Below, in pieces: positions 20,855 to 40,611 of a DNA stretch of 64,000 bases. The notes below the pieces were generated by a model. The model did no database searches, was not told the origin of the DNA, and saw only the letters and a program-made list of their open reading frames with translations. The DNA is taken from NCBI GenBank assembly GCA_965206365.1, contig CBDBJL010000004.1, positions 141,144 through 205,143 on the forward strand, given 5' to 3'. The translations under genes were made by a program, and so were the position numbers. Source of the DNA: Alphaproteobacteria bacterium (GTDB lineage Bacteria; Pseudomonadota; Alphaproteobacteria; JABAAW01; JAHZMA01). The stretch's first letter is position 1, and every line of letters starts with the position of its first letter.

Positions 20855-20859
20855 GAACT

Positions 20860-21350: not shown

Positions 21351-21400
21351 TAAATAACGCTAAAGCTGACCAGCTAAAAGCTGGTGGTTTTAACCAATTA

Positions 21401-23224
21401 TTGGAAAATAAATTTACGATAGATGAAGCATTCAGGGAGTGCTTTTATGTCGTGCCGGACTATCAACGCGAATATGTCTGGACAGAAAAGCAGATTACGC
21501 AGCTGCTTGAAGATATAAACGAGCAGATGGATAGCAGTTCGTCTGAATATTTTATCGGTACCATTCTCGTGTCCCCGCGAGATGGAGAAAAAGGCCATTA
21601 TGATGTTATAGACGGGCAGCAACGCCTAACTACAACCTTTTTGATTTTATGTGCCTTGAGAGTTCTTTTCAGTGGAATGCCGCAGGGGCAAATGATCAAT
21701 GGATTAACCGCCACCAGCTATACAGATGCACAAGGTGACATTAAAACCAATCTCAAACTTGAACCCAGATACGAAAATGCTGGGGAGGTTATAGAGAAGA
21801 TCGTTCAGGCCAACGGTGATCCGCAAGCCGTTCGTGCCAATATCCAAAGTTCCGGCATTCAGATTTATGGGTCTGTTGAGAATATATTGAACGCCTATGA
21901 TGTTATTTATCGCTTTTTGACCAATAACTATGACGACGAAGCCACGCTGAAAAAATATTGGGGCCATCTGGCCAATAACGTGGTTTTCATTCAAATCTCT
22001 ACGGACGTCAGCAGCGCATTAAAAATATTTGAAACAATTAATGAGCGCGGCGTTGGTCTGAATCCCATGGACCTTCTAAAGAATCTGTTGTTCACTCAGG
22101 TGTCACCAGAACGGTTCTCCCAGCTCAAAGATGAATGGAAAAAGATCACCAGCCCGCTCGAAAAAAACAAAGAAAAGCCACTTCGTTTCTTGCGTTACTT
22201 CCTCATGGCTAATTATGACATCAGGAACGAACGTAACGATGCGATTGTTCGCGAAGATGAGATTTATGATTGGTTCTCTAAGAAGGAAAATGCAGCCCTT
22301 ACAGGCTATCAGGAAAACCCCTTTGAATTTGTTCGGCAGATCACACGTAATGTAAATCGCTACATAGATTTCAGTAATGGGCTTGGCAATGACGGCAAAC
22401 CCAGTTTGGCGATGGACTCTCTTAAAAAACTAACAGGCGGCGCATTCAGTCTGCACTACGTCTTGCTGCTAGCGGCAGCGAATTTGCCAAAGCCACTATT
22501 TGATCAATTTGTGGCACAGCTCGAAAACTTCTTGTTCTTCTACATTTTCACCAAGACCCCAACCAAAGACCTTGAACGCAGCTTCTCGCTTTGGGCTGAT
22601 GAGGTCCGAGATATTGCTCAACTCGAAAATCCTGAAGAGCAGAGACAAAAACTCAATGATTTTGTGTCTGAACGTTTTGCTCAGAACATGGTCAAAAAGA
22701 CGCCAGAGCTTAAAGATGCATTGAAACGTTTGACGTTACACTCCATGCAGCAATACCGCACACGTTATTTGCTGGCACGCTTAACGCAGCATGTGGATAT
22801 GGCATTCAGTGGACAAAAGGTACGAGGAAGTCTTGACCCATATTTTAAATTAGAGATAGAGCACATCCTGCCTAACAACCCTGAAAATGATCTGCGAAAC
22901 ACATGGCAGGAAAAGCATCCAGAGCTGATTTATGATGAACACAAAAACCGCCTTGGCAATCTGACTCTGCTGGAGAAGCCCATCAATATTGTTGCTGGCA
23001 ATGACTTCTATGCAGGTAAAGTTTCTGAATATGCGAAGAGCGGCAATTACCTAACAAGAAGCCTTTCTGCTCTTGCTGAAGTTGGCCAAAACACATCTAT
23101 TTCCCGTATAAACGAAAAACTGTCCGTGTTTAAAAAATGGGATGCGGAGGACGTCGAAAGTCGGCAATTGCTACTGATCGCCTTAGCTCAAGAGATTTGG
23201 AAGACCACAGAAATTACAGCTTAA
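21401..23224 (+). CDS. GmrSD-like type IV restriction enzyme (DUF262 ParB-like N-domain plus DUF1524 His-Me C-domain)
   Basis: DGQQRLTT motif of DUF262; C-terminal EIEHILPNNP...HKNRLGNLTLLEK typical of DUF1524. Confidence 0.8.
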   Translation: MENKFTIDEAFRECFYVVPDYQREYVWTEKQITQLLEDINEQMDSSSSEYFIGTILVSPRDGEKGHYDVIDGQQRLTTTFLILCALRVLFSGMPQGQMINGLTATSYTDAQGDIKTNLKLEPRYENAGEVIEKIVQANGDPQAVRANIQSSGIQIYGSVENILNAYDVIYRFLTNNYDDEATLKKYWGHLANNVVFIQISTDVSSALKIFETINERGVGLNPMDLLKNLLFTQVSPERFSQLKDEWKKITSPLEKNKEKPLRFLRYFLMANYDIRNERNDAIVREDEIYDWFSKKENAALTGYQENPFEFVRQITRNVNRYIDFSNGLGNDGKPSLAMDSLKKLTGGAFSLHYVLLLAAANLPKPLFDQFVAQLENFLFFYIFTKTPTKDLERSFSLWADEVRDIAQLENPEEQRQKLNDFVSERFAQNMVKKTPELKDALKRLTLHSMQQYRTRYLLARLTQHVDMAFSGQKVRGSLDPYFKLEIEHILPNNPENDLRNTWQEKHPELIYDEHKNRLGNLTLLEKPINIVAGNDFYAGKVSEYAKSGNYLTRSLSALAEVGQNTSISRINEKLSVFKKWDAEDVESRQLLLIALAQEIWKTTEITA

Positions 23225-24454: not shown

Positions 24455-24528
24455 GGTCTCGTAGCTCATCAGGATAGAGCGCCAGATTCCTAATCTGGAG
24501 GTAACAGGTTCGAGTCCTGTCGAGATCG
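24455..24528 (+). tRNA. tRNA-Arg (anticodon CCT)
   Basis: Hand-folded cloverleaf: acceptor ggtctcg/cgagatc, D-arm gctc/gagc, anticodon stem ccaga/tctgg with loop ttCCTaa, T-arm acagg-ttcgagt-cctgt, discriminator G; CCA not encoded. Confidence 0.85.
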
Positions 24529-24584
24529 CCCCTTTTATCTCATTCCCAAGAAAAACCCGCTTTTATGCCTAACGAATATTGCTC

Positions 24585-26990
24585 TTAAATATTTTCGCTA
24601 TAATTGCCACGTACCCTCTGTTTCGTCGGGTCAAAATGTGGAAATGGACAAATCGTTGCCGCAAGTTTTTTTTGCTTGCCATCTAACTGACCAACATCAA
24701 TTTCCGTACCGTGATTGGCATATGTAACATCCACCCGCGCCAAAGCAATGACCTTATCTAAGATTGGAGATCGGGTAGCTGACGTAATCTCTCCAACCTG
24801 AGCTTTCCCAACCCGTAAACAACTGCCTGCATCGGGTACCAAATTACCTGCAATATTCAACCCAACCAATTTTTTCTGCGGAGAAGCTTTACGCTTTGTT
24901 AACGCCTCACGGGAAATAAAATCACTCTTTTTAGATTTAAGTGGCACAGTAAAACCAATACCAGCTTCAAATGGATCCGTCTGATCACTAAATTCAGAGC
25001 CAGCAAAAATTAATCCCGCCTCAATTCGCAACATATCTAACGCTTCCAACCCTGCAGGCAACATCCCCAAAGGCTCGCCTTTAGCCCAAATCGCATCAAA
25101 AATTTGAACCGCATCACGCGGATGACAAAATACCTCATAGCCCAATTCGCCCGAATAACCCGTACGACTAACAATACATGCAACCCCTTGTTCATTACCC
25201 AATCGGGCAATAGAAAACCGAAACCAATCCAATTCACTCACATTCGATTGCGTAGATGCGCTCCAAAATAACTCTTGTAAAATATCCCGAGATCTCGGTC
25301 CTTGTACTGCAATATTACATAATTGTTCAGTAGAACATTTTACCCAAACATTCAAATTATGCTTGCTAGCTTGTTGTTGCAACCATAAACCACTATCATC
25401 TGTACCACCAACCCAACGAAAATTATTATCTCCCAACCGAAACACCGTACCATCATCAATCATACCACCATGTTCGTAACAGATCGCACTATAAACTACC
25501 TCGCCCACTGATATTTTCTGCACATCACGCGTGAGACAAAGTTGCATTAATTGCAATGCATCAGGACCTGTAATTTCATATTTACGCAAAGGTGATAAAT
25601 CCATCACGACAGCCTTTTCACGACAAGCCCAATATTCAGCAATTGCACCATGATTTGACATATTATTGGCAAGCCAATAACCATTATATTCACCAAAATT
25701 TTTCGTAAAGCGTGCAAAGCAACTATGAAAAGCACTTTCCTTAGTTTCAATCATTTCTTTCTCCACTGATTTCCGCCAACCAATAGACCGGCTAATCGGG
25801 TTATCTTTACGATAGGTTCGCACCTGAATATCGGTTGGATCCCAACCATTGGCTGGATCAATATCACACGGACAAGCAGTAGAAACACAAACCACATCAC
25901 TCATCGCTTGCAATAACACATAATCTCCGGCTCGTGACCAAGGATCATCCATACCAATCGCCTGACTACTATCCAATAAAGTATTAAAAAAAAAATTAAT
26001 ACTTACCCAGCCTTTGCGAGGTTTAATATCGTAGCGAGCCAATTTTAAATTTATATTATCGGTACAATTAACATGCCCCGGATAACCCATATCTTCATAA
26101 TAACGAGCAGTACAAGCCAAACCAAACGTATCATGTCGCCCACAAGTATCTTGAATAATCTCAATTAATGGTACCTGATGATACGAATAATATTTCGAAT
26201 AGATCCCAGGAGTTGGATACAAAGCTCCCATCAAGCTTCGCGTTGTGGTGGGATCAATTTCACAAACCTCTCCCCGATCCAAACCCGCTTTCGAAAAAGC
26301 CTGAAAATCAGAACATTCGCGCCCTTGCACATCCAAAATTTGAATATAATCACCTGCTGCAACTTCATAAGTCACGGCATTGCCAGGCTGAATATTAACA
26401 TCTATTATTGGATCATAAAGCGGTTCGGGTGGTAGTAACCGATCAGCCTTTTCGCCGGGAGCACTACGTGTAATATAAAGAATAATTTCACTGGCCACAT
26501 TCTGCTGATCAACCGCCATATCATAGGCTGGCACAACAACAATCAGCCAGCATGTCGCCTGAGCATAATATTCTTCCTGAGCTTCAGCGACACTCTGCAT
26601 ATCGAACGCAATCGAGGCACTTAATCCATTCACATCGATTCCGCATTGTTGCAAAACTGTTTTTAATCGCATCGATGCCATATCATTTTTTTGTGCCAAA
26701 ATTTGTTTCAAGCCAATGGCATCCCGACTGTTCTTAGCCCCGATCAACCCAGAATCAACGGTACCATCTTCACCAAAAGCAAGTAATTCGGCAATCTGCG
26801 CCCCATCAGAATTAATCAAAGTTACCTGATCTCCCGCTTCTAATTTTACAGTACGTGAGCAACCCGGCGCAACAACATAACGTTCTACCCCATGGGGTAA
26901 AATCGGCATAGCAGGTGTGAATATTCCATTTTTCACATTATTGTAATATCGAACATCAAACCCATTCATAGTCTCAATCCTTTCACTCAA
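24585..26990 (-). CDS. tdm: trimethylamine N-oxide demethylase-like (DUF1989 N-domain fused to GcvT aminomethyltransferase domain)
   Basis: 801 aa; C-terminal half has the glycine-cleavage T fold (SRTGYSGELGYEV); this domain pair matches Tdm. Confidence 0.75.
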   Translation of the reverse strand: MSERIETMNGFDVRYYNNVKNGIFTPAMPILPHGVERYVVAPGCSRTVKLEAGDQVTLINSDGAQIAELLAFGEDGTVDSGLIGAKNSRDAIGLKQILAQKNDMASMRLKTVLQQCGIDVNGLSASIAFDMQSVAEAQEEYYAQATCWLIVVVPAYDMAVDQQNVASEIILYITRSAPGEKADRLLPPEPLYDPIIDVNIQPGNAVTYEVAAGDYIQILDVQGRECSDFQAFSKAGLDRGEVCEIDPTTTRSLMGALYPTPGIYSKYYSYHQVPLIEIIQDTCGRHDTFGLACTARYYEDMGYPGHVNCTDNINLKLARYDIKPRKGWVSINFFFNTLLDSSQAIGMDDPWSRAGDYVLLQAMSDVVCVSTACPCDIDPANGWDPTDIQVRTYRKDNPISRSIGWRKSVEKEMIETKESAFHSCFARFTKNFGEYNGYWLANNMSNHGAIAEYWACREKAVVMDLSPLRKYEITGPDALQLMQLCLTRDVQKISVGEVVYSAICYEHGGMIDDGTVFRLGDNNFRWVGGTDDSGLWLQQQASKHNLNVWVKCSTEQLCNIAVQGPRSRDILQELFWSASTQSNVSELDWFRFSIARLGNEQGVACIVSRTGYSGELGYEVFCHPRDAVQIFDAIWAKGEPLGMLPAGLEALDMLRIEAGLIFAGSEFSDQTDPFEAGIGFTVPLKSKKSDFISREALTKRKASPQKKLVGLNIAGNLVPDAGSCLRVGKAQVGEITSATRSPILDKVIALARVDVTYANHGTEIDVGQLDGKQKKLAATICPFPHFDPTKQRVRGNYSENI

Positions 26991-28935
26991 TCCCCAATAA
27001 TCGTTTCCGTTTTTCCGACCAAAGCAAAATTAAATGATCCGCCATCAGCCCCATAAAGGCTACACATAATCCCAATACCATCCCTTTTCCGACATCGGTA
27101 GAGGATAGCGCACGTTGCATTTCTTGTCCTAAATCTTGCGTACCAATAAAAGCAGCAATAATCACCATAAAAAGCGAAAATAAAATACATTGATTCAACC
27201 CGACCATAATCGTGGGAATGGCAATTGGCATTTGTACCAATTTTAATTTCTGCCAACCGCTTGCCCCCGACATATCCGCCACTTCTACCATAGTGGTAGG
27301 AACAGTACGCAACCCTTCAATCGTATAGCGCGTCATTGGTGCCATGCCAAACGCCACCACTGCGCCAATGGCTGCAACATCATTAACACCAAATAGCATA
27401 ATAACAGGAATCAAATAAATAAAACTAGGGAAGGTTTGCGCAGTATCGCAAATCAATAAAACAATTTTTGCCCGTTTTTCTTTCCGCGCCGCCCATATTC
27501 CCAAAGGCAAACCCATAATCATCGCCAAAAACACTGCGATACTCACCATATAAGCCGTAATCATTGCCCGATCCCACCAACCAGAGGCGGCAATCGCTGC
27601 GAAAAATAAAAAACAAATAATGGCTGAACGCCTACCTCCAATTAACCAACCAATCCCGCCCAGAAAAAGCAATACTGTCGTGAAAGGTAACCAAAGATAG
27701 AAATTTCGATAAGGTATCAGGACAAATTTGATTAAAAATCCCCGAAGAGCATAAGTGAACGGACCCAGCTGAGTAACAATATAATCCACCACCAGGTCTA
27801 GATCTTTTGAAATCGTGAAACCACTAGTCCGTTTAATTTCATAAGCATAATCCCAAAATTGTGCCAGTATAAATAATATCGCAACACTCAAAACCCAAAT
27901 TACCCAATAAAAATTTCGTTGATGCCATGGCGTACCACGTGCAAAATGAATCGGTTGTTTGTAAGCCCAAGCCTTTGAGCACCGATCCAATACAATCGCA
28001 AGCAACACAATCGTGATCCCAATTTCAATCGAACGCCCAATTTTTAAACTTTGCAACAATTGTAACAATTTATATCCCAAACCTGGCATTCCAATGAAAC
28101 TTGCCAACACCACCATCGCCAAACATTGCATAATCACCTGATTAACACCAATAATCAGTTCAGTTCTTGCACTTGGGATCCAAACATGGCGTAACAACTG
28201 CCATTTATTGGTTCCACACATCCGACCATTTTCAACCAACTCTGCTGGAACTTTTTTCAAACCCAAAATAACCATTCGGATCATGGGTGGGGTGGCAAAA
28301 ATGATCGTAACAATTGCACCGGCTTTCGGCCCCACTCCAATAAATACTACTACCGGAATCATATAAGCAAAATGGGGTAGTGATTGCGCAATATTCAAAA
28401 TTGGATTGAGAATACGTTCAAATTTGTGATTTCTCCAAGCCAAAATACCAACAATCAACCCTAAAAATACACCAAATGGAACCACAACTACAAGCACCGA
28501 TAAGGTTTCCATTGCCAATTTCCATTGCCCTAAAAGAGCAATCCACACAAAAGTACCACCCGATAAAAGCGACAAACGCCAGCCCCTTAATGCGTGACCA
28601 AGGATAAAAAGCGAAGCAGCAACCACTGTCCAGGGAATCTGATCGAACCTTGGCCAGCGATTTTTACCATAAAGCAAATTCGAAACCACATCGATCAACC
28701 ATTCAATCACTGCAGCAAAGTCACGTGTGATATAGACAAGACCCAAATCATCCTTAATAAAGAAAAATAATCCGTTAATCCAATCGGCAAAAGGTAACAC
28801 CATCCAATCTAAAGGGCGTATTAAAAAGTCGGGGAGTATAATCTTAAATATAGCCAACACAACAGCCAAACCAATAACCCCATAAGCAACATTTTGCTGA
28901 TGAGTATTGGATTTTATATCAAATGGTACCTTCAT
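26983..28935 (-). CDS. tmoW: ABC transporter permease with duplicated permease domains (betaine/TMAO type)
   Basis: Two BPD-type permease modules each with an EAA-like loop; 650 aa; overlaps the tdm start. Confidence 0.75.
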   Translation of the reverse strand: MKVPFDIKSNTHQQNVAYGVIGLAVVLAIFKIILPDFLIRPLDWMVLPFADWINGLFFFIKDDLGLVYITRDFAAVIEWLIDVVSNLLYGKNRWPRFDQIPWTVVAASLFILGHALRGWRLSLLSGGTFVWIALLGQWKLAMETLSVLVVVVPFGVFLGLIVGILAWRNHKFERILNPILNIAQSLPHFAYMIPVVVFIGVGPKAGAIVTIIFATPPMIRMVILGLKKVPAELVENGRMCGTNKWQLLRHVWIPSARTELIIGVNQVIMQCLAMVVLASFIGMPGLGYKLLQLLQSLKIGRSIEIGITIVLLAIVLDRCSKAWAYKQPIHFARGTPWHQRNFYWVIWVLSVAILFILAQFWDYAYEIKRTSGFTISKDLDLVVDYIVTQLGPFTYALRGFLIKFVLIPYRNFYLWLPFTTVLLFLGGIGWLIGGRRSAIICFLFFAAIAASGWWDRAMITAYMVSIAVFLAMIMGLPLGIWAARKEKRAKIVLLICDTAQTFPSFIYLIPVIMLFGVNDVAAIGAVVAFGMAPMTRYTIEGLRTVPTTMVEVADMSGASGWQKLKLVQMPIAIPTIMVGLNQCILFSLFMVIIAAFIGTQDLGQEMQRALSSTDVGKGMVLGLCVAFMGLMADHLILLWSEKRKRLLGIE

Positions 28936-28940
28936 AATCT

Positions 28941-29987
28941 TTAACCTAATAAAATATCTAACATTTTTTCCCGCGAAACCGCACCAATAATTTTCTTCTT
29001 ATGATCACAAACTGGGATAATTTCACGGATATCATTCATAAGATCATGAGAAACATTATGAATAGGATCTGTCGCCTTAAATGGAGCTTCCTTATCCGTA
29101 CATTGTAATTTTTTATCTATAAGAGCACCAACAGTTACGATTCGTGCTTGATAAACTTCCTCAGTAAAACGCTTAACATAATCGTTGATCGGGTTCAGTA
29201 ATAGATTGGCTGGCAGGTCAATTTGTTGAATCGCACCATCTTTCATAATCGCAATCCGATCCGCTAGACGCAGTGCCTCATCAAAATCATGCGTAATAAA
29301 AACAATCGTTTTTTTAAGCATCTGTTGCAACCGGATAAATTCATCTTGCATATCACGCCGAATTAAAGGGTCTAAGGCGGAAAAAGGCTCATCTAAAAAC
29401 CAAATATCAGGTTCGATAGCCAATGAACGAGCAATCCCTACCCGCTGTTGTTGTCCACCCGACAACTCCCGCGGAAAATAATTTTCTCTACCCTCAAGCC
29501 CAACCAACTTAACCATCTCAATGGCACGGGCATAGCAATCATGTTTGTCTTGGCCACGCATCTCAAGTGGAAAGGAAACGTTTTCAAGCACATTACGATG
29601 CGGTAACAAAGCAAAATTCTGAAACACCATCCCCATTTTGCTACGCCGCAACTCAATCAGATCCTGTTCACTCAAAGCTCCTAAATCCTGCCCTTCTACC
29701 ATAATCGTACCTGAAGTAATATCAATCAATCGCGATAAACAACGCACCAAAGTTGATTTCCCTGAGCCCGACAAACCCATAATGACTAGAATTTCACCCT
29801 CAAAAATATCTAATGACACATCATGCACTGCAGCAATATAGCCATCATCTTGAATGCTCTGAAAATCAGTATTCGCATCGCATGACTGCATGTATCGGTC
29901 TGGATTTTCACCATAAAGCTTCCAGATACCCCGGCAGTTAATAACTGCTGTTGAGGATTCAGATGATGTTTTAACCATAGCGAGCAC
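28941..29987 (-). CDS. tmoV: ABC transporter ATP-binding protein with C-terminal CBS domains (ProV/OpuAA-like)
   Basis: Walker A GLSGSGKST, signature LSGGQQQRV, Walker B IWFLDEP; CBS pair at the C-terminus. Confidence 0.85.
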   Translation of the reverse strand: MLAMVKTSSESSTAVINCRGIWKLYGENPDRYMQSCDANTDFQSIQDDGYIAAVHDVSLDIFEGEILVIMGLSGSGKSTLVRCLSRLIDITSGTIMVEGQDLGALSEQDLIELRRSKMGMVFQNFALLPHRNVLENVSFPLEMRGQDKHDCYARAIEMVKLVGLEGRENYFPRELSGGQQQRVGIARSLAIEPDIWFLDEPFSALDPLIRRDMQDEFIRLQQMLKKTIVFITHDFDEALRLADRIAIMKDGAIQQIDLPANLLLNPINDYVKRFTEEVYQARIVTVGALIDKKLQCTDKEAPFKATDPIHNVSHDLMNDIREIIPVCDHKKKIIGAVSREKMLDILLG

Positions 29988-30047
29988 CCCTTCATTCTTA
30001 TTTTTCGATGATTAAGGTAATTTTTACTACCAAAATATTATTTTTAT

Positions 30048-30086
30048 ATTAATGCCACCCCACCTTAAAAATGAGGTGGCATTAAT
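30048..30086 (-). terminator. intercistronic stem-loop between tmoX and tmoV (attenuator or partial terminator)
   Basis: 12-bp stem attaatgccacc/ggtggcattaat with 15-nt loop, followed on the minus strand by an A/T-rich run. Confidence 0.35.
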
Positions 30087-30101
30087 GATTAGGTTAAGTT
30101 T

Positions 30102-31079
<978 letters not shown>

Positions 31080-31245
31080 TTAAGGAAACTATATATTTAA
31101 CACCTTAAGTTCCAATGATCCAGTGAATTCAAATTAAAACCACCATACAACAAAACCGTAATACTTAATATATATTCTCCAAGTTAATAATCAGGGTATA
31201 AAACCTTTGATGGTTTATTACCCCATTTCCACAAAACTTGCAATC

Positions 31246-31261
31246 GCAATATTTTGTAAAA
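31246..31261. promoter_or_regulatory. perfect CRP/FNR-type box TGTGA-N6-TCACA upstream of tmoX
   Basis: tgtgaccattgtcaca lies approx. 190 bp upstream of the tmoX start codon. Confidence 0.4.
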
Positions 31262-31286
31262 ATTCTTTAAAAATTTGTGACCATTG

Positions 31287-31886
31287 TCACACATTTTCCA
31301 GATCCTGCATAATTGGCTGATTCGTTGTTGAAGTAACCCAATCAGGACAAAAACTAATTATGACAACATCTTTGGATAAATTCGGATTAAACATATGATT
31401 ATGCCACCAGCTCGCCTGATAAAAAAAACTATCTGTCTGCAACTGCTTTGCCTGACAGCAAAGCGAATATTCCTGAGTATAGGCACTGAAATGAAGCCGA
31501 CAAGCTTGACTCGCCAAAATTTGCCTAGCCCCTACTGATTCAGGCGCGAAAACTGCCGTCAGCTGATCAGAAAATTCATCTATATGCTGATAATAATATT
31601 CACTAAAAAATTTCAAGGCCTTATCGCGTCGTTGCATCAAATCATGTGTATGCCTAACAATATGCCTGAGCTCAGGTAATTTGGAAAAATCATCTGTTTT
31701 ATTTAAAATCGTTATAATATGACCGAGCGATCTGCCTTGAGAAGCCTTATTAGGGTCTAAAGTCACAATTGGCATCATCCCATCGCTCGGTCGTCCATCT
31801 TTTTCACGCACAGATATTTGGCGCACTCGACATTGCCAACGTAAAAACGACTCTTTAAGCCTTTCACCATACACAACATCTTTCAT
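31287..31886 (-). CDS. hypothetical protein within the methylamine operon
   Basis: 199 aa; co-directional and tightly spaced with the mgs genes; no recognised domain. Confidence 0.4.
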   Translation of the reverse strand: MKDVVYGERLKESFLRWQCRVRQISVREKDGRPSDGMMPIVTLDPNKASQGRSLGHIITILNKTDDFSKLPELRHIVRHTHDLMQRRDKALKFFSEYYYQHIDEFSDQLTAVFAPESVGARQILASQACRLHFSAYTQEYSLCCQAKQLQTDSFFYQASWWHNHMFNPNLSKDVVIISFCPDWVTSTTNQPIMQDLENV

Positions 31887-31920
31887 ACATTAAACTCCGT
31901 AACCATGATATCGTAACTGC

Positions 31921-32334
31921 TCAACGCTTAATATAAGCATGACGCAATTTTACCAAAGGATGTTTCTTCGACATCTGAAATTTCACCAACAATTCCCGCG
32001 CAATCATATCACGATCTTGCTGATTATCCGGCAATGAAATTGTATCGGGCACACGCACCCAACCATTAATATTACGGTCAAAAACTGCGGCATTGCCATC
32101 CTCATACCCCATATGAATATCTTCTAGCCAATTTAGATCTACCCAACCCATCACTTCCAAATATTTTTTTAAGAAAGGGGTAAGACAATCATAATCTGGT
32201 ACCAAATTTACATCATAACGATAGCCAATATGTTGGCCAATTTCTTTTTCACGTTCGCTCTCCAAGCCTTCCTTATCTTCCAGGAATTGATCCACACCTT
32301 TCAACTCAGAGCCACGATATTCTTTTCCAGCCAT
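31921..32334 (-). CDS. hypothetical protein within the methylamine operon
   Basis: 137 aa; 16 bp downstream of mgsC. Confidence 0.4.
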   Translation of the reverse strand: MAGKEYRGSELKGVDQFLEDKEGLESEREKEIGQHIGYRYDVNLVPDYDCLTPFLKKYLEVMGWVDLNWLEDIHMGYEDGNAAVFDRNINGWVRVPDTISLPDNQQDRDMIARELLVKFQMSKKHPLVKLRHAYIKR

Positions 32335-32350
32335 TTGTTAATCTCCTCTT

Positions 32351-33718
32351 CTACAGATGATGATAATCTTCGATCCCGACCGTGTGATTTGTTCCTGCCA
32401 AAGGAACTCCTGCAATTGCCGAAGCTTCCATTGTCAGAGCTGCCAAATCTTCTGGTTCTAAGGAATGTAAATTAGTTTTTCCACAAGCACGGGCAAATAG
32501 TTGCGCCTCAATGGTAAGGGTATGCAAGAAATTATAAACCCGTTCGGCCGCTTCATCAGGATTAAGCCGTTTACGAAGTACTGGATCTTGCGTTGCCACA
32601 CCCACCGGACAACGTCCAGTATGGCAATGGTAACAATAGCCCGGTTCTACACCCATTTCTTCTTGAAAATTCGCTTCATCAATATCCTTATTGCAATTAA
32701 GTGCCATCATCATAGAATGCCCAAGTGCAATCGCATCGGCTCCCAACGCAATGGCCTTCGCCACATCGGCACCATTACGAATTCCACCAGCATAGACCAA
32801 ACTAACTTGGCCTCTTTTTCCAAGATCATCAATGGCTTTACGTGCCTGCCTAATTGCAGCCATCCCCGGAACACCCGTATCCTCTGTTGCCAAATGTGGC
32901 CCAGCACCAGTACTGCCTTCCATGCCATCAATATAGATACTATCTGGATCGCATTTCACTGCCATACGAACATCATCGTAAACGCGCGCCGCACCTAATT
33001 TAAGCTGAATAGGAATTTGCCAATCTGTAACTTCGCGAATTTCTTGAATTTTCAATGCTAGATCATCCGGACCCAACCAATCAGGATGCCGAGCCGGAGA
33101 ACGCTGATCGATACCAGCTGGCAAACTCCGCATCTCAGCTACCTGATCCGTAACCTTTTGCCCCATCAAATGGCCACCCAAACCTACTTTGCAACCTTGA
33201 CCGATGAAAAATTCACACCCATCTGCCAACATTAAATGATGTGGGTTAAAACCATACCGCGATTGAATACATTGGTAAAACCATTTTGAACTATACCGTC
33301 TCTCATCAGGAATCATCCCACCTTCACCCGAACAAGTAGCCGTACCAGCCATCGTGGCTCCACGCGCCAAAGCTGTTTTTGCCTCATAGGAAAGTGCCCC
33401 GAAACTCATTCCAGTTACATAAACTGGAATATCTAACTTCAAAGGGTGCTTGGCCCGAGGACCAATAACCGTTTTCGTTTCGCATTTTTCCCGATACCCC
33501 TCAATTACAAACCGAGTAAGTGTGCCGGGTAAAAAGGTTAAATCATCCCAATGCGGTATTTTCTTAAACAACGAAAAGCCCCGCATCCGATAGCGACCCA
33601 ATTCCGCTTTAATATGAATATCATCAATCACATGAGGTGGAAAAACAAAAGAATTTCCCAATCGATTGACATCTCTATTCAAGGTTTTTTTAACTTTGCT
33701 CATATCGTTTCCATCCAT
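32351..33718 (-). CDS. mgsC: N-methylglutamate synthase subunit C (glutamate-synthase FMN-binding domain)
   Basis: GltS FMN-binding TIM-barrel signature (GGTGA, Cys cluster CYHCHTGRCP). Confidence 0.7.
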   Translation of the reverse strand: MDGNDMSKVKKTLNRDVNRLGNSFVFPPHVIDDIHIKAELGRYRMRGFSLFKKIPHWDDLTFLPGTLTRFVIEGYREKCETKTVIGPRAKHPLKLDIPVYVTGMSFGALSYEAKTALARGATMAGTATCSGEGGMIPDERRYSSKWFYQCIQSRYGFNPHHLMLADGCEFFIGQGCKVGLGGHLMGQKVTDQVAEMRSLPAGIDQRSPARHPDWLGPDDLALKIQEIREVTDWQIPIQLKLGAARVYDDVRMAVKCDPDSIYIDGMEGSTGAGPHLATEDTGVPGMAAIRQARKAIDDLGKRGQVSLVYAGGIRNGADVAKAIALGADAIALGHSMMMALNCNKDIDEANFQEEMGVEPGYCYHCHTGRCPVGVATQDPVLRKRLNPDEAAERVYNFLHTLTIEAQLFARACGKTNLHSLEPEDLAALTMEASAIAGVPLAGTNHTVGIEDYHHL

Positions 33719-33719
33719 T

Positions 33720-34589
33720 CTACAAAATTATTTTCTTTTCACTAGGCTCAAGATTATCGTAATTCCACAATTGCCTACCGGCAACAATTTTTGTGAAATG
33801 CTTAACACCCTTACTCGGCAACAAATCATATTGCGTTAATTTACGCTCCAGCCACGCTTGATCCGAACTAGTCAATTCTTCTGGCACTGCATCAACCCCA
33901 CAAGATTTAATTTCACCGCCAACATAAATTGTTCCATCATACATGGAATCACCAAGATTCTTACCCGCATTCCCACATACAACCATTCTACCACGTTGCA
34001 TCATAAAACCCGAAAGTGCCCCAGTATCACCGCCAACGATAATCGTACCACCCTTCATGTCAATACCGGTACGCGAACCAACCGAACCTCTACACACCAG
34101 ATCACCACCACGAATGGCTGCACCAAAAGTAGAACCAGCATTTTTTTCGACCAAAATCGTACCAGACATCATATTTTCACCGCACGACCAACCAACACGA
34201 CCCTTAATGCGCACATTAGGACCATCAATAAGTCCAACACCAAAATAACCTAGCGAACCTTCAAAAGTAAGGTTAAGTCGACTAAGAATCCCCACACCCA
34301 AAGAATGCTTACCACGTGGATTTTTAATGACAATACTTCCATAACCTTGCGACATTAATTCGCGAATTTTGCCATTAACCTTTATGGTTGATAGATCCGT
34401 TGTATCCAATTCAGTGCGTTTATTGTAATCAACATCTGCCGCCCAAGGATAAAGATAATTCTCTTCCTCATCTGGATTAAATTCAATAAACAGCGAGCGA
34501 CCCGTTAATTGTTCGCTCATCATTCCCAACGCTTGAACCCGTTCTTCCTGGCTCATTGCATCAAGTTTAGCATCATTTACGCTTGCCAT
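33720..34589 (-). CDS. mgsB: N-methylglutamate synthase subunit B (GXGXG-motif domain of glutamate synthase)
   Basis: Repeated GxGxG beta-helix motifs (VCRGSVGSRTGIDMKGGTIIVGGDTGA). Confidence 0.7.
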   Translation of the reverse strand: MASVNDAKLDAMSQEERVQALGMMSEQLTGRSLFIEFNPDEEENYLYPWAADVDYNKRTELDTTDLSTIKVNGKIRELMSQGYGSIVIKNPRGKHSLGVGILSRLNLTFEGSLGYFGVGLIDGPNVRIKGRVGWSCGENMMSGTILVEKNAGSTFGAAIRGGDLVCRGSVGSRTGIDMKGGTIIVGGDTGALSGFMMQRGRMVVCGNAGKNLGDSMYDGTIYVGGEIKSCGVDAVPEELTSSDQAWLERKLTQYDLLPSKGVKHFTKIVAGRQLWNYDNLEPSEKKIIL

Positions 34590-35515
34590 ACACGTATCTC
34601 CTCATCATAAGGGTCACAAGTATCAATTTCTTCTGGTAAAATAGCACGAATTGCAACTTCTTCTGATGCCATCGCAACCAAATCGTCACTCTCATATAAC
34701 ACCAAAGGTTTCGCTGCCATACTATCTTTTGCCATGCCTAGCTGATTATGAGTTGCCACCAAATAAGTAAACACCCCATCAATTTCTTCTATCGAGCGAC
34801 GCAAACTATCTTCCAAAGTTTCACCCTGAGACAAGTTGCGGGCCGTATAAACCGCCAATAATTCAGAATCACAATTCGACATAAAACGATGTCCCTCGCG
34901 CTCTAATTCACGACGCTTCAACCAATAATTGGTGACTTGTCCATTGTGAACAATCGCAATATCATTATAAGGAAATGCCCAATAAGGATGCGCCGAACGA
35001 ATATCTACATCCGACTCTGTCGCCATTCTGGTATGACCAATCGCATGAGTCCCTTGGAAATCTTCCAAGCCATAAAGCCCACTTACCACAGCTGCATCAC
35101 CCAAATCTTTAATTAATTCAAGTGCGTTACCAAAAGAAAGAATTTCCACCCCTTCAATTTCCTCAACATGTTTTGCCATCGCATAATTATCACCCTTAAA
35201 GGTTAATAAATAGCGAAGCGCGCAAGAGGTGACGCGTTGCTTAGACTTTACAACCACCTTATGAGTTTTTAGCCGCTCTTCAATTTCTATAATGCGGGCA
35301 TCAATAATATCTTCGATCCCACGCCCTTTCGCAATATCTTCATTTTCTGCAACCTTAATTCGCATGATATATTGGTCGTTAGAACCATCACTACCATAAA
35401 CCGCAAAACCAGTAGAATCTGGCCCGCGATGCTTAAGAGATTGCAACATCGAAGTCATCTGATTCCCAACACCAGAAGCCTTACCGCGATGAATCAACCC
35501 AGCAATTCCACACAT
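34577..35515 (-). CDS. mgsA: N-methylglutamate synthase subunit A (class II glutamine amidotransferase)
   Basis: N-terminal MCGIAG with catalytic Cys at position 2. Confidence 0.7.
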   Translation of the reverse strand: MCGIAGLIHRGKASGVGNQMTSMLQSLKHRGPDSTGFAVYGSDGSNDQYIMRIKVAENEDIAKGRGIEDIIDARIIEIEERLKTHKVVVKSKQRVTSCALRYLLTFKGDNYAMAKHVEEIEGVEILSFGNALELIKDLGDAAVVSGLYGLEDFQGTHAIGHTRMATESDVDIRSAHPYWAFPYNDIAIVHNGQVTNYWLKRRELEREGHRFMSNCDSELLAVYTARNLSQGETLEDSLRRSIEEIDGVFTYLVATHNQLGMAKDSMAAKPLVLYESDDLVAMASEEVAIRAILPEEIDTCDPYDEEIRVWQA

Positions 35516-35567
35516 CCCCCATTACTCCTTTTCCAATTCATTGTTCAAAATTAATTACTCTAAAATC

Positions 35568-37040
35568 TTACGGAAGGCAATTAAGATAAGTATCCACATC
35601 CCATTCAGTAACGGTATGGTTAAATCTTTCCCACTCGTCTGTTTTATATTCATGGAATAAACGATACATATCTCCAGGCATACCCGATTGCACCACCTTA
35701 TCTTTCGCAAGGGCTTCTAATGCTGCCCCTAAAGTCATAGGTAATTTTTGAACTTCCTTACCGGATTCCATCGCCGCATAAATATTACGCTCTTCTGGTT
35801 TACCGCAATCAATCTTATTATCCAATCCATCATCCACCGCCACAAGTATGGTTGTGCCCATCAAATAAGGATTTACCATTGAATCCACCGAACGAAACTC
35901 AAAACGACCCGGTGCAGAAATACGCAGACCTGTCGTTCTATTTTGAAAACCCCAATCTTTAAAGATTGGTGCCCAAAATCCAGTATCCCACAACCGACGA
36001 TAACTATTGACCGTAGAACAACCAATCGCAGTTAAAGCGTCCAAATGCTTTACAATGCCACCAATAGCGTGCTGACCAATAATTCCCGGCATTTGCGGAT
36101 CATCACCCGATGGCATGAAAGTATTTTCACCACCAGAAGAATAAGTGAAAACAGCTTCGTTAGCTGGAAGACCCCCTGATTTATGACCGAGCATTTTAAT
36201 TTTATCTTCACCACCCTTCCATAAGGAAATATTATGGTGACAACCATTAGCGGAAACACCCATAAAGGGTTTCGTCATAAAGCAAGCAATTAAACCAAAT
36301 TCACGCGCAACCTGTGCACAAATTTGCCGATAAGTCGATAATCTATCCGCATTACGCAAACAATCATCATAAGTCCAATTTAATTCTAATTGACCCGGTG
36401 CATCCTCATGATCTCCTTGAATAATATCCAAGCCCATCGCACGAGAATATTTAATTACCTGCATATAAACTTCACGCAAACTTTCAAATTGATCAATATG
36501 GTAGCAATATGGTCGCGAAAATCCACCATTGGGATTGCCATTTTCATCTTGTTTCAGCCACATCATTTCTGGTTCAGTGCCACAGCGTAGATGCATGCCA
36601 TGCTTATCTTGAAACTGCTGATGCAACCGTCGCAAATTACCACGTCCGTCTGATGTTAAAAAAGCGCCAGGATCCTGGCGCTCTTCGCGATTTCTAAATA
36701 AAGTACACCATACACGTGCAACTCGCTTATCCCATGGTAGTTGGCAAAAACTATCTGCCTCTGGAATTCCAACCAGCTCAGCTGCCTCAGGGCCATAACC
36801 AATATATTCATCATGGCGATTTTGAAACAAATTCACCGTAGCCCCATACACTAGTTGAAAACCTTTTTGTGCAATCGATTCCCAATGATCAGCGGGAATA
36901 CCCTTCCCACAAATCCGACCCGTTATCGAAACAAACTGTAAATATAAATATTCAACACCAAGAGAATCAATCTGTTTTCGCACCTGCTTAATCATATCGG
37001 CACGCCCGGGTGCCTCCACAAAACTTTCAATATCCGTCAT
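35568..37040 (-). CDS. gmaS: gamma-glutamylmethylamide synthetase (glutamine-synthetase type III-like)
   Basis: Glutamine-synthetase catalytic-domain signatures; heads the gmaS-mgsABC arrangement. Confidence 0.65.
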   Translation of the reverse strand: MTDIESFVEAPGRADMIKQVRKQIDSLGVEYLYLQFVSITGRICGKGIPADHWESIAQKGFQLVYGATVNLFQNRHDEYIGYGPEAAELVGIPEADSFCQLPWDKRVARVWCTLFRNREERQDPGAFLTSDGRGNLRRLHQQFQDKHGMHLRCGTEPEMMWLKQDENGNPNGGFSRPYCYHIDQFESLREVYMQVIKYSRAMGLDIIQGDHEDAPGQLELNWTYDDCLRNADRLSTYRQICAQVAREFGLIACFMTKPFMGVSANGCHHNISLWKGGEDKIKMLGHKSGGLPANEAVFTYSSGGENTFMPSGDDPQMPGIIGQHAIGGIVKHLDALTAIGCSTVNSYRRLWDTGFWAPIFKDWGFQNRTTGLRISAPGRFEFRSVDSMVNPYLMGTTILVAVDDGLDNKIDCGKPEERNIYAAMESGKEVQKLPMTLGAALEALAKDKVVQSGMPGDMYRLFHEYKTDEWERFNHTVTEWDVDTYLNCLP

Positions 37041-37896
37041 ATTTACTCCTAATTTCCAAATAAAACAGCGATAAATAAGATACTACTGTAACCAAAATGC
37101 CCACCGCCAATCACAATCAGTACTAAGGCGAATCACACTTTAAAGGACACCCTAATGAAGAAAGTAGGATATGTCAATTAACTTATGAGAAAAATGTTTG
37201 GATCAATAAAATTTATAACCCAAAATTATATCCATCACCCCATGTGAGTCGCATGATAACTACGCTAATCTCCAACTGAAAAACGATACCCAGCTGGGTA
37301 AAATTTATAATCACTACAAAATAAACTCTATCATTTCCCCTACACATAACAGAATCTCCCTGCTAAAACCCCTCAGTTTATTTTCAAATAACCGTTTTTC
37401 AAAAAAATCAAACGCACTAAATTTTTTAATCGCTTCTGTGATTTCAAATAAAATCTCGCAAACATGATATCTTGCGAAAAAAATTTTATACAGCTTCTAT
37501 ATTTCACTTTTTTTAAAAATCTATCCAATTTTTACACTTACTAGTTGTAATTATAGTCCTAATATTGTTAATTTCTTGTCAAATCAAAATCTTACTATTT
37601 ATGCAGTATTTTGGTGTTTCATCTCCCAAAAAACCTATACATACCGCTTAATGTAACTTTCATATCAAATGAAATACCAACATGCTCGTATATTCTGGAT
37701 ATCACCCAATAATAACGAGCCAACTGTTCATTTTGATACCTTCCGTAGCAATGCTTGAAAAAAATCAAACTACTTAAGCAAACCATATTACTTTTGGGAA
37801 AATGATCAACAACAGCTTGTGGTAGCGGAGCGGTTTTGATTTGTGGTATTCTACAAAATGATGTTGCTCTTAGTTTTGAATCTGTTGAGATTACCA

Positions 37897-37963
37897 TCCC
37901 CCCCTTGAATAATAATATGCGGGGGGATTTTAAGGGGGGTGGCCATCGGCTGGGCCACCCTTG
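37897..37963. repeat. G6/C6-armed nested palindromic element (family copy outside the prophage)
   Basis: tcccccccttgaataataatatgcgggggga followed by aaggggggtggccatcggctgggccaccctt. Confidence 0.6.
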
Positions 37964-38064
37964 ATTATAAAAAAATAGCGTTTAACGAGCGGGATTTACC
38001 CCTTGATCATAGAGATATTGAGCGATTTCTTTGCAGAAATCAAAATTCTGCTTTTCGGTATTTT

Positions 38065-39400
38065 CTAGCTATTAAAGTAAAGAGCAAGAAAATCAGAACT
38101 ATTGCGCTCTAACCCATCTTTGGCATGATCATAATCGCGTGTAATTTTTTCGGGTAAATTATAAACATCCGCGCCATATTGCACCATAAGCTTAAAAGAA
38201 TTCAAAATATCACCGCTAGAATCCTCTTTATACTGGTAATGCCAAGCCAACAGTGAGGCAGAAGTATATTAATAAAAATCGTAATAATTGGCAGATAATC
38301 TGGTAGGGTAAAGATTAGGATCTGCACCATATTCCAGCAATATTTTGGTAGTGGCTAAATTTTCTGGAGTTGGCTCTTCGATCATCCGATGCAGTAAACT
38401 ATAGTTATCATAATCATCATTATTAATATCTTGCCCACGGTTAATAAAAATTCTATTACCGGAAAATTATGGGCTTGAAGAGCACGACGAAACGAAGCAG
38501 CTGCAGAATATTTCGTATGTTTTACTAGGAAATCAAAAATTTCCGGATTAGAATTATGGGCGGCAAAATATAACGGGGTATCGGGTGTCATTAAGCTCTA
38601 ACCCTTCTGCAACTGCCTGTTTCACTTGTGCTAAAGTTACGGTTGCCAAAAATTGATAATCACTCTCTTTTGTAAGAATGCCAATATTATACAGATATTT
38701 CGCAATTTTCTTACAAGCATCATAATGATAACCATTTTCGTTATTAGGATACAATTCAGCATTAATAAAATATCTTTTCAATAAAGAAGACCGCATCATT
38801 TTTATAATTTCTTTCACCATAAATTTGGCTTCCACCGCCACCATAACCTCCATAAAGATATTCATTAAATAACATTATCCAACCTGCCCCCATAGGCTAA
38901 TAATAATTCAAATAGGGCTAATAATCTTATTCGTTGCTACAATATGTTCATCTGGAGCATCATAACGGGTAGCAATGATTTGTGAGTAAAGTGGTAGGTG
39001 TTGCAACAATGTCAAAATTCTCGCCATAAGAGAATAAATACGTATAGAAATTAGGATCTGCACCATATTCCAGCAATAATTTAACTTTGTCTAAATCACG
39101 ATTCTCTACGGCTCGATGCAAAGTGGTGTAGTCTTCATCATCAATAATATTAATATCTGCGCCAGCTTCCAGCAATAATTCAATTACCGGGATATTTTTT
39201 CCATTGATGGCGATGGCCAAAAGATCGGGAGTGAGGTATCGTTTTGCATAAACATCATAATAGCTATTTGTACTGGGAGTTTGTTAGAGTAAAAATTTGG
39301 CAATTTCAGGGTTAGGATTTTCAGCAGCATAATGTAGCGGTAAGAAATGCCCCTTCATAAGATCTGTTCTTATATTCATACCCTTAGGCAAGGGCATCCT
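38065..39400 (-). pseudogene. decayed ankyrin-repeat gene(s)
   Basis: At least four short minus-strand ORFs in different frames each encode ankyrin-repeat fragments (e.g. LLLEAGADINIID...TLHRAV). Confidence 0.5.
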
Positions 39401-39825
39401 TGACCTGTTTTAGCGTGGCAGTTTTCAGAAAATGATAATCTGATTGCTGTTGATTGGCATGGGCAACTACCATGATAAGGGCAGAGATACCGAATATAAT
39501 TTTCAACCATCTATATTCCATCTTTGCCCTGTATCTTCATAAAAATTGTAATCCCTATTTAAAATTACCAACAATCTTAATCAAAATTAATGTTTGACCC
39601 TTTATGTTGTGCATTTAAGTCTTTTTTAATTTTTTTAAGTGTTTCTTCGGTATGATTAAGGACATTATTTAAAAGTCTGATGCTACTTTCTTCTTTAAGT
39701 TTTATCGAGATTTCTTTGCCAAAAATTAAAATCCCTTTAATTACCTTTAACTTTGCCATAAAGCATGGTCCTTTCTAAAAAAAATGCTAGCTTTGTATGA
39801 GGGAAAATTCGCATCATCAAGAACT

Positions 39826-40611
39826 TTAGTAGTTAGAGAGAACGCCGATTTTGATCAGATAATTATCAAAGAAATCAAAATTGGCAAAATTGCCTTTCTT
39901 ATTTTTTGCTTTCACATCAGCGCCGTATTCGATTAAAATATCAATCATAGCAATCGTTTCTTCATAAGTGACATTACTAGTGGGCTCATATTGTTCATCT
40001 TCACTACATCCGCCACCTTCACTACACTCAATATAATGTTTTTCCCTATCGTATATTTGGTGTACGTATTTTCCATGAACAGCCTTAAAAAATGGGGTTT
40101 CACCATCATCATCACGGGCATTTACATCCGCCCCGGCATCTAGCAAAAGCTTGGTGATTTCAGCATTTTCAGTGTTATGCAAAGGCGTTTCTCCGTTAAT
40201 ACGATTACGGGCATTCGCATCTGCCCCTGCACTTAGTAACAGCTTAACAATTTCAGCATCGCGAGCCCAATGCAAAGGCGTATATTCCCAATAACTTTTG
40301 ATATTCACATCTGCCCCCTCTTCAATTAAGAAAATCGCAATCTCACTCCTTCCAGCAAGAAGAGCCCCAGGTAATAAAGTTTCACCATTTTCATCTCTGC
40401 TATTAATATCAATGCCCATTGCCAGTAATTCTTGAATATCAGCAAGGGTAGCGGTTTTCACATCAAAATAATATCTTATAGGATCTTCAATATCTACAAT
40501 TTCTTCCGCTTGCGCTATAACAAAAAAAAAGATTCCACCCATAAGAACACCCGTTATGAGTATGTTTATTAGCAAATTTGCGTGTTTGCTTTTTACCTTT
40601 AATTTTGCCAT
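39826..40611 (-). CDS. ankyrin-repeat protein with N-terminal signal/anchor helix
   Basis: Hydrophobic N-terminal helix followed by at least four ankyrin repeats (TPLHWA..., ETPLHNT..., ETPFFKA...). Confidence 0.8.
   Translation of the reverse strand: MAKLKVKSKHANLLINILITGVLMGGIFFFVIAQAEEIVDIEDPIRYYFDVKTATLADIQELLAMGIDINSRDENGETLLPGALLAGRSEIAIFLIEEGADVNIKSYWEYTPLHWARDAEIVKLLLSAGADANARNRINGETPLHNTENAEITKLLLDAGADVNARDDDGETPFFKAVHGKYVHQIYDREKHYIECSEGGGCSEDEQYEPTSNVTYEETIAMIDILIEYGADVKAKNKKGNFANFDFFDNYLIKIGVLSNY

Follow-up and report, generated by a model that had tools for sequence, protein, structure and literature searches.

We have analysed a block of ten open reading frames (ORFs) at positions 24585-37040 of a 64,000-nucleotide stretch of DNA from an Alphaproteobacteria bacterium (contig CBDBJL010000004.1; the whole stretch is called the window hereafter), which a first-pass annotation had described as an island for the catabolism of trimethylamine N-oxide (TMAO) and methylamine. 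Methylated amines constitute a major pool of marine organic nitrogen and they are also aerosol precursors. The block is a genuine TMAO uptake and demethylation operon and forms one co-directional ten-gene unit made of two functional parts: the TMAO genes proper (tmoX, tmoV, tmoW, tdm) and, preceding them in the direction of transcription, a six-gene module (GS'-A'-B'-C'-uA137-uB199) which, as judged from the protein comparisons given below, is a separate and widespread paralogue of the gamma-glutamylmethylamide / N-methylglutamate (NMG) system. The earlier observation was thus largely correct and its interpretation half correct; the value of the locus lies in the genes resembling gmaS and mgs and in the two ORFs that had been listed as unknown.

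The ten-gene block and its TMAO genes

All ten ORFs were confirmed on the minus strand, separated by short gaps or overlapping; in transcription order they encode 490, 312, 289, 455, 137, 199, 316, 348, 650 and 801 amino acids (aa). The features of the block are the following.

37041..37620, minus strand: leader, AT-rich and non-coding, 5' of GS', with no ORF of 80 aa or more
35568..37040, minus strand: GS', 490-aa putative gamma-glutamyl-amine ligase of glutamine-synthetase fold (Gln-synt_C)
34577..35515, minus strand: A', 312-aa Ntn (class II) amidotransferase, MgsA/GltB-N-like (GATase_6, GATase_7)
33720..34589, minus strand: B', 289-aa GXGXG beta-helix subunit, MgsB/GlxC-like (GXGXG domain)
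32351..33718, minus strand: C', 455-aa FMN glutamate-synthase-domain subunit (Glu_synthase, 302 bits)
31921..32334, minus strand: uA137, 137-aa module-specific orphan, no Pfam or NCBIfam match
31287..31886, minus strand: uB199, 199 aa, PNPOx-like FMN-binding split-barrel fold, module-specific
31276..31291, no strand assigned: perfect TGTGA-N6-TCACA palindrome (TGTGACCATTGTCACA), overlapping the uB199 stop, 224 nt upstream of the tmoX ATG
30102..31052, minus strand: tmoX, periplasmic TMAO-binding protein (OpuAC; PDB 4xz6)
28941..29987, minus strand: tmoV, ProV-family ABC ATPase (ABC_tran; TIGR01186)
26983..28935, minus strand: tmoW, 650-aa permease with two fused ProW/ChoW-type domains (two BPD_transp_1 stretches)
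24585..26990, minus strand: tdm, TMAO demethylase (DUF1989+GCV_T+GCV_T_C; NF053776)

The co-directional ORFs and the domains assigned to them by the first-pass annotation were reproduced by Pfam and NCBIfam scans (Gln-synt_C, GATase_6/7, GXGXG, Glu_synthase, OpuAC, ProV-type ATPase, BPD_transp_1 twice, DUF1989+GCV_T+GCV_T_C). Tdm passed the NCBIfam equivalog NF053776 (1143.2 bits, cutoff 1100) and was aligned over its full length to the solved TMAO demethylase 9q59/9q5a with 888 bits; its DUF1989, GCV_T and GCV_T_C domains occupy residues 200-367, 430-680 and 706-787. The next relatives, GcvT and the dimethylglycine or sarcosine oxidases, reached at most 179 bits, and dimethylglycine oxidase and sarcosine oxidase themselves at most 131 bits, hence the protein does not group with dimethylglycine- or sarcosine-type enzymes, the outcome that had been named as speaking against its assignment, and the Tdm call is borne out. 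It can be securely predicted that Tdm converts TMAO to dimethylamine (DMA) and a one-carbon (C1) unit. For its start the ATG at 26969 (794 aa) is a better candidate than the TTG at 26990, judging by the sequence and by the length of the homologues (792-795 aa); the TTG start would overlap tmoW by 8 nt, and the in-frame ATG lies 21 nt further downstream.

The importer was recognized with similar clarity. TmoX matched PDB 4xz6, which we take to be the structure of Ruegeria pomeroyi TmoX, with 507.6 bits over its full length, the next-best match being 36 bits; TmoV exceeded the proV cutoff of TIGR01186 (330.2 versus 326.6 bits); and the two BPD_transp_1 stretches of TmoW, whose homologues in related loci have 657-687 aa, also match TIGR03416 and ProW. 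The proposed tmoXVW with a fused double permease is therefore confirmed, and import of TMAO by TmoXVW can be regarded as a secure prediction. TmoV had been called a CBS-domain ATPase: the ATPase part stands, the CBS part does not, since a single sub-threshold CBS match was obtained at the C-terminus (E 0.0016, 19.2 bits, cutoff 24).

A paralogue of the canonical gmaS-mgsABC genes

Tdm and TmoXVW are already known systems. What is new here is a variant of the GmaS/NMG-synthase type that has kept the Fe-S ligands, contains two new subunits and associates with other partners. As canonical reference we used a Ruegeria conchae plasmid which carries dmmDABC, amt, mgsA (309 aa), GlxC/mgsB (227), mgsC (442) and glnT/gmaS (442). 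GS', A', B' and C' of the window share 30, 34, 39 and 52% identity with these proteins, versus 67-95% within their own family (71-85% for GS', 67-77% for A', 74-83% for B', 87-95% for C'); among the PLSDB plasmids no C' homologue above 60% identity was found. The module and the canonical GmaS-MgsABC (R. pomeroyi SPO1573 and following genes, Rhodovulum GmaS 7cql, R. conchae) have the same four-protein architecture, GmaS residues and methylated-amine gene setting; nevertheless the module proteins are longer (490/312/289/455 versus 442/309/227/442 aa), the ligase gene stands first in the module and last in the canonical operons seen, and only the module possesses the Fe-S cysteines and two extra obligatory genes. 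The name gmaS-mgsABC given previously to these four genes thus holds for architecture, domains and GmaS residues, but not for orthology, considering the low identities, the failed TIGR03105 profile and the coexistence of both sets in single genomes.

GS' is, by sequence comparison, a GmaS paralogue, and its orthology was rejected: it scored 302.1 bits against TIGR03105 (GlnT/GmaS), below the cutoff of 469.6. In the PDB it matched GlnA with 192 bits and GmaS with 183 (9qur) and 175 bits (7cql), and it also matches gamma-glutamylputrescine synthetase models (206 bits). The structure of RhGmaS assigns the catalytic and methylamine-pocket residues compared here (PMC7948447), and our residue criteria (catalytic Asp177, Glu186 and Arg312, the monomethylamine (MMA) pocket, the flap Trp) were taken from the same work. 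In the alignment GS' keeps Y147, Q175, D177, E179, E186, N188, K30' and Arg312, with QGDHEDAPGQLELNW, GFWAP, QNRTTGLRI, CY and CGK at positions equivalent to the GmaS residues. It has Trp where the ammonia-using glutamine synthetase (GS) carries the flap Glu, GmaS-type Asp177 and Asn188 in place of the GS His and Asp, and apparently Gln at the position of the GS Asp50', in a stretch that is loosely aligned. Compared to GmaS there are four family-specific insertions, and the flap (gate) loop is shorter by 5 aa. Since the GmaS-type residues are kept together with the flap Trp, GS' may work like a gamma-glutamyl-alkylamide synthetase.

A', B' and C' are encoded by three consecutive genes with the three domain classes of the MgsABC type (Pfam), and they correspond to the amidotransferase, GXGXG and FMN/Fe-S synthase domains of GltB, the large subunit of glutamate synthase (GOGAT); against the GltB model NF008730 they reached 136.8 bits and failed its cutoff of 1047. 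The N-terminus of A', MCGIAGL, contains the Cys1 nucleophile, and this start is present in 47 of 56 family members, the other nine keeping MCG. An N-terminal extension of about 60 aa in B' is kept across the family and missing from canonical MgsB. The C-x5-C-x4-C-P motif carries the ligands of the 3Fe-4S cluster of GOGAT. In C' the motif LNC...CxxCHxxxCPVGVATQDP (LNC...CYHCHTGRCPVGVATQDP) aligns with it (C1146/C1152/C1157 of the plasmid-borne S. meliloti GltB that served as reference); C' differs by having a fourth cysteine and 17 aa inserted within the motif. The cysteine pattern was found in all 50 C' sequences, the LNC cysteine in 49 of them, whereas Gly-Asp, Trp and Asp occupy these sites in both canonical MgsC sequences that were read. 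Accordingly the module shares with GltB both Cys1 and the C...C-x4-C-P motif beside VGVATQDP, but it is split into three polypeptides, the ligase paired with it is not of the ammonia type, and no gene for a GltD-like partner was found among the scanned ORFs of the window or in the annotated relatives. C' is probably an Fe-S flavoprotein exchanging electrons with a partner. The extreme conservation of C' should be read with some reserve as a special sign, since between SAR11 and Ruegeria the canonical MgsC, too, shows 84% identity.

The two small proteins are core parts of the module and define it. It had been noted that the ORFs at 31287-31886 and 31921-32334 looked conserved; they are indeed, both being present in all 52 full module loci, and their supposed co-occurrence with mgs-type genes applies to the paralogous module and not to the canonical genes, as homologues of uA137 and uB199 were missing from the three canonical operons examined. 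uA137, which appears to be the orthologue of the SAR11_1309 hypothetical protein, forms more than 7998 clusters at 90% identity and is 79-85% identical across classes; no remote relatives were found among 1.84 billion representatives, and neither an informative fusion nor a fold match was obtained. uB199 has the split-barrel fold in common with the PNPOx-like FMN-binding superfamily, but at about 9% identity, without a match in Pfam or NCBIfam up to E 10, and, unlike that superfamily, with an extra long N-terminal helix bearing an invariant WQCRxRQ motif.

With the 137-aa ORF as anchor 80 species-representative loci were fetched. The module occurs in at least 570 species-level genomes and in thousands of metagenomic protein clusters; the loci fetched belong to Rhodobacterales, Rhizobiales, SAR116, Methyloligella and the gammaproteobacterial Granulosicoccaceae, always in the order GS'-A'-B'-C'. 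The R. pomeroyi genes SPO1554-1561 were considered as a module and discarded, SPO1557 being fhs-1. SAR11 carries NLLPDY in place of NLVPDY, due to which an AT-biased DNA pattern found only five contigs of 35-39% GC.

The two sets coexist. In a Marinosulfonomonas metagenome-assembled genome (MAG) a second GS-like gene, with 411 bits over 282 aa to Rhodovulum GmaS 7cql, stands beside tdm: the 44-kb contig starts with amt, a 72-aa ORF, an XRE regulator, mgsA (300 aa), mgsB (234), mgsC (445) and gmaS (435), and continues with convergent tdm-tmoWVX, a LysR gene and then the module with 137-aa, Nit-amidase and 196-aa genes, so that the canonical set and the module flank tmoXVW-tdm. A complete 1.35-Mb Candidatus Pelagibacter genome has tmoX, tdm, DAO, GS', A', B', C', a 133-aa protein, amt, mgsA, mgsB, mgsC and gmaS. 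Its assignment to SAR11 relies on source names within 90% clusters and agrees with the published annotations of HTCC1062, where SAR11_1303 is AMT (tdm), SAR11_1304 'monomeric sarcosine oxidase', SAR11_1305 glnT, SAR11_1308 gltB2, SAR11_1309 hypothetical, SAR11_1310 amt, SAR11_1313-1315 glxBCD and SAR11_1316 glnT. The gene set and order of SAR11_1303-1310 match those of the SAR11 genome examined and the core of the window, the SAR11 GS', A', B', C' and uA proteins being 58-77% identical to ours; SAR11 differs in a DAO gene directly upstream and in the lack of uB199 beside uA in the complete genome, while the window has neither the DAO nor an adjacent canonical operon. That a streamlined genome keeps both sets argues against simple redundancy. 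SAR11 lineages differ in the parts kept: in the metagenome contigs L104-L108 of one abundant subclade (e.g. L104 6918-9259) uA is immediately followed, in inverted orientation, by a uB199 homologue of 181 aa and a gmaS of canonical type (452 aa), and in the complete genome L109 canonical mgsABC-gmaS follows amt, with no adjacent uB.

The neighbourhood of the module was counted in the 52 loci with full flanks.

GntR regulator, divergent upstream: 51/52 loci
Nit1/Nit2-type amidase, directly after uA137: 46/52 loci
Tdm: 33/52 loci
TmoXVW, in the same X-V-W-Tdm order: 30/52 loci
class-I amidotransferase-like protein: 28/52 loci
Tmm: 26/52 loci
SoxB/MTOX-like DAO, always directly upstream of GS': 24/52 loci
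dmmABC: 0/52 loci
canonical mgs: 0/52 loci

The dmmABC genes were likewise missing from all 96 related loci and from the window. The canonical set adjoins dmmDABC in R. conchae, and amt in SAR11 and Marinosulfonomonas. The most compact form of the module is a 12-gene run, DAO-GS'-A'-B'-C'-uA-Nit-uB-tmoX-V-W-tdm, compared to which the window represents a minimal core: tblastn detected neither the DAO nor the Nit amidase nor the GntR gene, which have been lost or are kept elsewhere. In the closest relative, an alphaproteobacterial MAG with identities of 85% for GS' and 68% for Tdm, the upstream region carries Tmm, two DAO genes and GntR.

The first-pass annotation had reported that dmm and mgd genes are absent from the window, and this holds. 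The domain scans covered 10 neighbouring ORFs of at least 84 aa and 20 ORFs of at least 200 aa; tblastn was run with 18 reference proteins (Dmm, DAO, Tmm, GntR, Nit-amidase, Amt, canonical Mgs/GmaS). Neither approach revealed dmm, tmm, DAO or canonical gmaS/mgs genes in the window, and mgd, looked for by the ORF domain scans, was not found either. With tblastn the island's own paralogues were the only matches, without any remnant of DAO, Nit amidase or GntR; the sole DmmD match was the GcvT domain of Tdm (31% identity).

Two further genes of the related loci should be mentioned. A class-I glutamine-amidotransferase-like protein of about 240 aa is found both beside R. conchae gmaS and beside the module (L086 11770-12480; L087 557-1279), the two copies being 37% identical. 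Between tmm and the GntR regulator a second DAO-family gene (474 aa; L085 250-3036 and related loci) is located, whose product weakly matches L-pipecolate oxidase and aminophosphonate oxidoreductase; this is probably the gene located between tmm and tmoR that PMC13390433 mentions as being of unknown function.

Possible function of the module

The accepted methylated-amine pathway has had a stated gap since 2017: a DMA monooxygenase is missing from SAR11 and several roseobacters, although they possess tmm, tdm and gmaS (PMC5520151). For these bacteria DmmDABC is the one aerobic reaction described that links Tdm to GmaS; it is not homologous to the module, but the module is a candidate for the same position of the pathway. 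HTCC1062 grows on TMAO as sole nitrogen source, for which an unknown 'isoenzyme of DmmDABC' was invoked (PMC8918994). SAR11 oxidises the methyl groups of TMAO, and the DAO orthologue SAR11_1304 is among the HTCC1062 proteins most induced by nitrogen limitation.

Our preferred interpretation, held tentatively and with somewhat less than even confidence, is that TmoXVW and Tdm cooperate with the paralogous module, which would process the amine left by Tdm in a Dmm-independent way. The module is associated with the TMAO importer, Tdm and Tmm, often in a single operon whose immediate product is DMA, which suggests a scheme where GS' acts on the amine of Tdm, whereas the canonical set travels with dmm or amt, which fits imported or Dmm-derived MMA. 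From the observed gene identities, paralogy, coexistence, residues, folds and synteny we infer the substrate, the direction of the reaction and the roles of uA137 and uB199 as follows. With ATP, GS' would attach a gamma-glutamyl group to a small methylated amine that arises downstream of Tdm. A', with its Ntn Cys1, would hydrolyse the gamma-glutamyl amide and the amine would be passed, with B' as scaffold, to C', where an electron-consuming, GOGAT-like condensation with 2-oxoglutarate might yield an N-methylated glutamate; a net-redox reaction of this kind is suggested, over the redox-neutral NMG synthase cycle, by the retained glutamate-synthase Fe-S ligands of C'. uB199 and uA137 could be module-specific subunits serving as redox partner or adaptor in place of GltD. 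In the relatives the SoxB/MTOX-like DAO encoded directly upstream might perform the oxidative demethylation, and the Nit2-like amidase might salvage a 2-oxo-amide side product; the GntR regulator is present there too.

DMA is the most likely single substrate of GS', though still a minority choice in our estimation, and MMA is nearly as likely. The low confidence in DMA is due to the MMA-like pocket, to R. nubinhibens possessing both systems, to the absence of a DAO from the window and to the L104-L108 subclade. The more specific proposal that the module together with the SoxB-like DAO is the missing Dmm-independent route for DMA nitrogen, in which gamma-glutamyl-dimethylamide is demethylated on the glutamyl scaffold, seems to us on the unlikely side.

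Several observations weigh against the Dmm-independent processing of Tdm's amine. The pocket of GS' resembles that of the MMA-specific enzyme and would accommodate MMA no less readily than DMA. In Roseovarius nubinhibens ISM the module is present and dmmDABC is listed as well, therefore the module is not simply a Dmm substitute, and the strict idea that it replaces Dmm is weakened. The DAO required by the DMA scheme is missing from the window, and in 19 of the 52 loci no tdm lies within 10 kb. The SAR11 subclade L104-L108 keeps a canonical gmaS, with no canonical mgsABC seen on its contigs of 7.5-11 kb. The conserved cysteines of C' fall short of proving a cluster, as the fold likeness of uB199 at about 9% identity falls short of proving flavin binding; the AlphaFold2 model of uA137 is poor, of low confidence; and the function of every module member is deduced from sequence, fold and synteny.

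Some of these points would be accommodated if the module were a second GmaS/NMG synthase isozyme set, converting MMA through gamma-glutamylmethylamide to N-methylglutamate with an affinity, regulation or electron economy of its own and leaving DMA to a DmmDABC encoded elsewhere, which we regard as doubtful though it has much in its favour. The subunit architecture is the same and GS' keeps the catalytic and MMA-pocket residues of GmaS; the gene setting is that of methylated-amine metabolism, with mgdA-like and TmaR-like genes in about 15 module loci; R. nubinhibens ISM has dmm besides the module; and in L104-L108 a gmaS beside A'B'C' without visible mgsABC hints that A'B'C' can process gamma-glutamylmethylamide, i.e. 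perform MMA-level chemistry. An isozyme would however hardly be expected where both full sets stand side by side, as in the 1.35-Mb SAR11 genome and the Marinosulfonomonas MAG, nor does it explain the Fe-S ligands of C' missing from the canonical MgsC examined, the two extra obligatory proteins, or the synteny of the module with tdm, tmoXVW and tmm and never with dmm.

The involvement of another amine or gamma-glutamyl compound, metabolized in a detoxification or catabolism of the PuuA/PuuB/PuuD type and merely sharing regulation with the TMAO genes, is improbable. GS' does match the gamma-glutamylputrescine synthetase models, the DAO-family oxidase, class-I amidotransferase-like protein and amidase of the relatives recall PuuB and PuuD, and besides the loci devoid of nearby tdm there are some Roseovarius loci with an amino-acid permease within the cluster; but the small polar GmaS-like pocket is kept, tdm, tmoXVW and tmm are the dominant neighbours, and an aldehyde dehydrogenase is not consistently present in the module loci. 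It is very improbable that the module is a specialised GS/GOGAT pair which re-assimilates the ammonia of methylated-amine breakdown with A'B'C' as a split glutamate synthase. In its favour, all three domains of GltB, with the Fe-S cysteines, are represented in A'B'C', the PDB score of GS' is as high for GlnA as for GmaS, and the HTCC1062 genes are annotated glnT and gltB2; on the other hand GS' has the flap Trp instead of Glu, Asp177 and Asn188 of the GmaS type and apparently, in the loose alignment, no Asp50', the GltD-like subunit was not found in the window or the annotated relatives, and SAR11 has nitrogen-limitation-responsive glnA and gltBD whereas SAR11_1305 and SAR11_1308 are unresponsive.

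Genes of the module have been noticed before as paralogues in SAR11 ('glnT', 'gltB2', 'sox', 'hyp. protein'). A functional description of the module was not found in open-access papers and bioRxiv preprints, the literature covered. The module sits between the TMAO genes and the canonical methylamine genes, and the orthologues of SAR11_1304-1309 are concrete candidate genes. If the module and the DAO do form a Dmm-independent route for DMA nitrogen, this would explain the use of TMAO and trimethylamine nitrogen by SAR11 and other dmm-less bacteria, and two enzyme systems would have been lumped together in many gmaS/mgs counts from ocean metagenomes. GS' scores 1e-63 to canonical GmaS and will also be picked up by gmaS BLAST surveys at e-50. 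The annotation 'mgsABC' hides a probable Fe-S subunit and two unknown partner proteins.

Surroundings of the island

The leader at 37041..37620 is presumed to be the promoter region of the ten-gene block; its promoter-like matches are consensus-level only and their count was not above that of shuffles. No Rfam family was found in it, and no riboswitch or RNA element was found in the island. The palindrome near tmoX had been placed at 31246-31261, 30 nt off its actual position of 31276-31291; the perfect TGTGA-N6-TCACA site does exist before tmoX. The window contains no second match, and at least one arises in 5 of 100 shuffles; the site is absent from all 97 related loci, and it also reads as a weak hairpin followed by a T-run after the uB199 stop. 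Being unconserved and within chance, the suggested CRP-type box, or any CRP/FNR-type operator at this site, was rejected as a supported regulatory element.

The island lies in what looks like an insertion-prone region, and the remaining parts of the window consist of mobile or defence DNA. The neighbours of the island are, on one side, a tRNA-Arg gene together with genes for GmrSD and IS200/IS605 and, on the other, broken ankyrin ORFs. The tRNA-Arg(CCT) gene (24455-24530, plus strand) is separated from the tdm stop by 55 nt and is convergent with the island. The adjoining defence and mobile cluster (7799-15547, minus strand, and 17320-23224) contains a type I restriction-modification system (HsdR of 1067 aa, HsdS, HsdM of 838 aa), IS605 TnpB (389 aa), an SF1 helicase with an RNase-H-like domain (802 aa), IS200 TnpA (144 aa) and a GmrSD endonuclease (607 aa). 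Directly 5' of the island, at 37619-40611 on the minus strand, there are short, stop-interrupted ankyrin-repeat ORFs (86-261 aa, 34-38% GC), which look like decaying ankyrin genes and as such suggest a host-associated or symbiont genome. Positions 41351-64000 are occupied by a Mu-like prophage (DUF5131, C5 methylase fragment, GemA, DnaB-type helicase, TniB/MuB-like ATPase, Mu transposase, terminase, Mu portal), and phage-tail (GpJ-like) remnants are located at 2186-4456. The window is compositionally mosaic, the GC content being about 41% in the island and ranging from 34 to 52% over the window, and the GC skew per 2 kb is strongly negative (-0.22 to -0.31) over the island at 24585-37040 and much weaker in its flanks.

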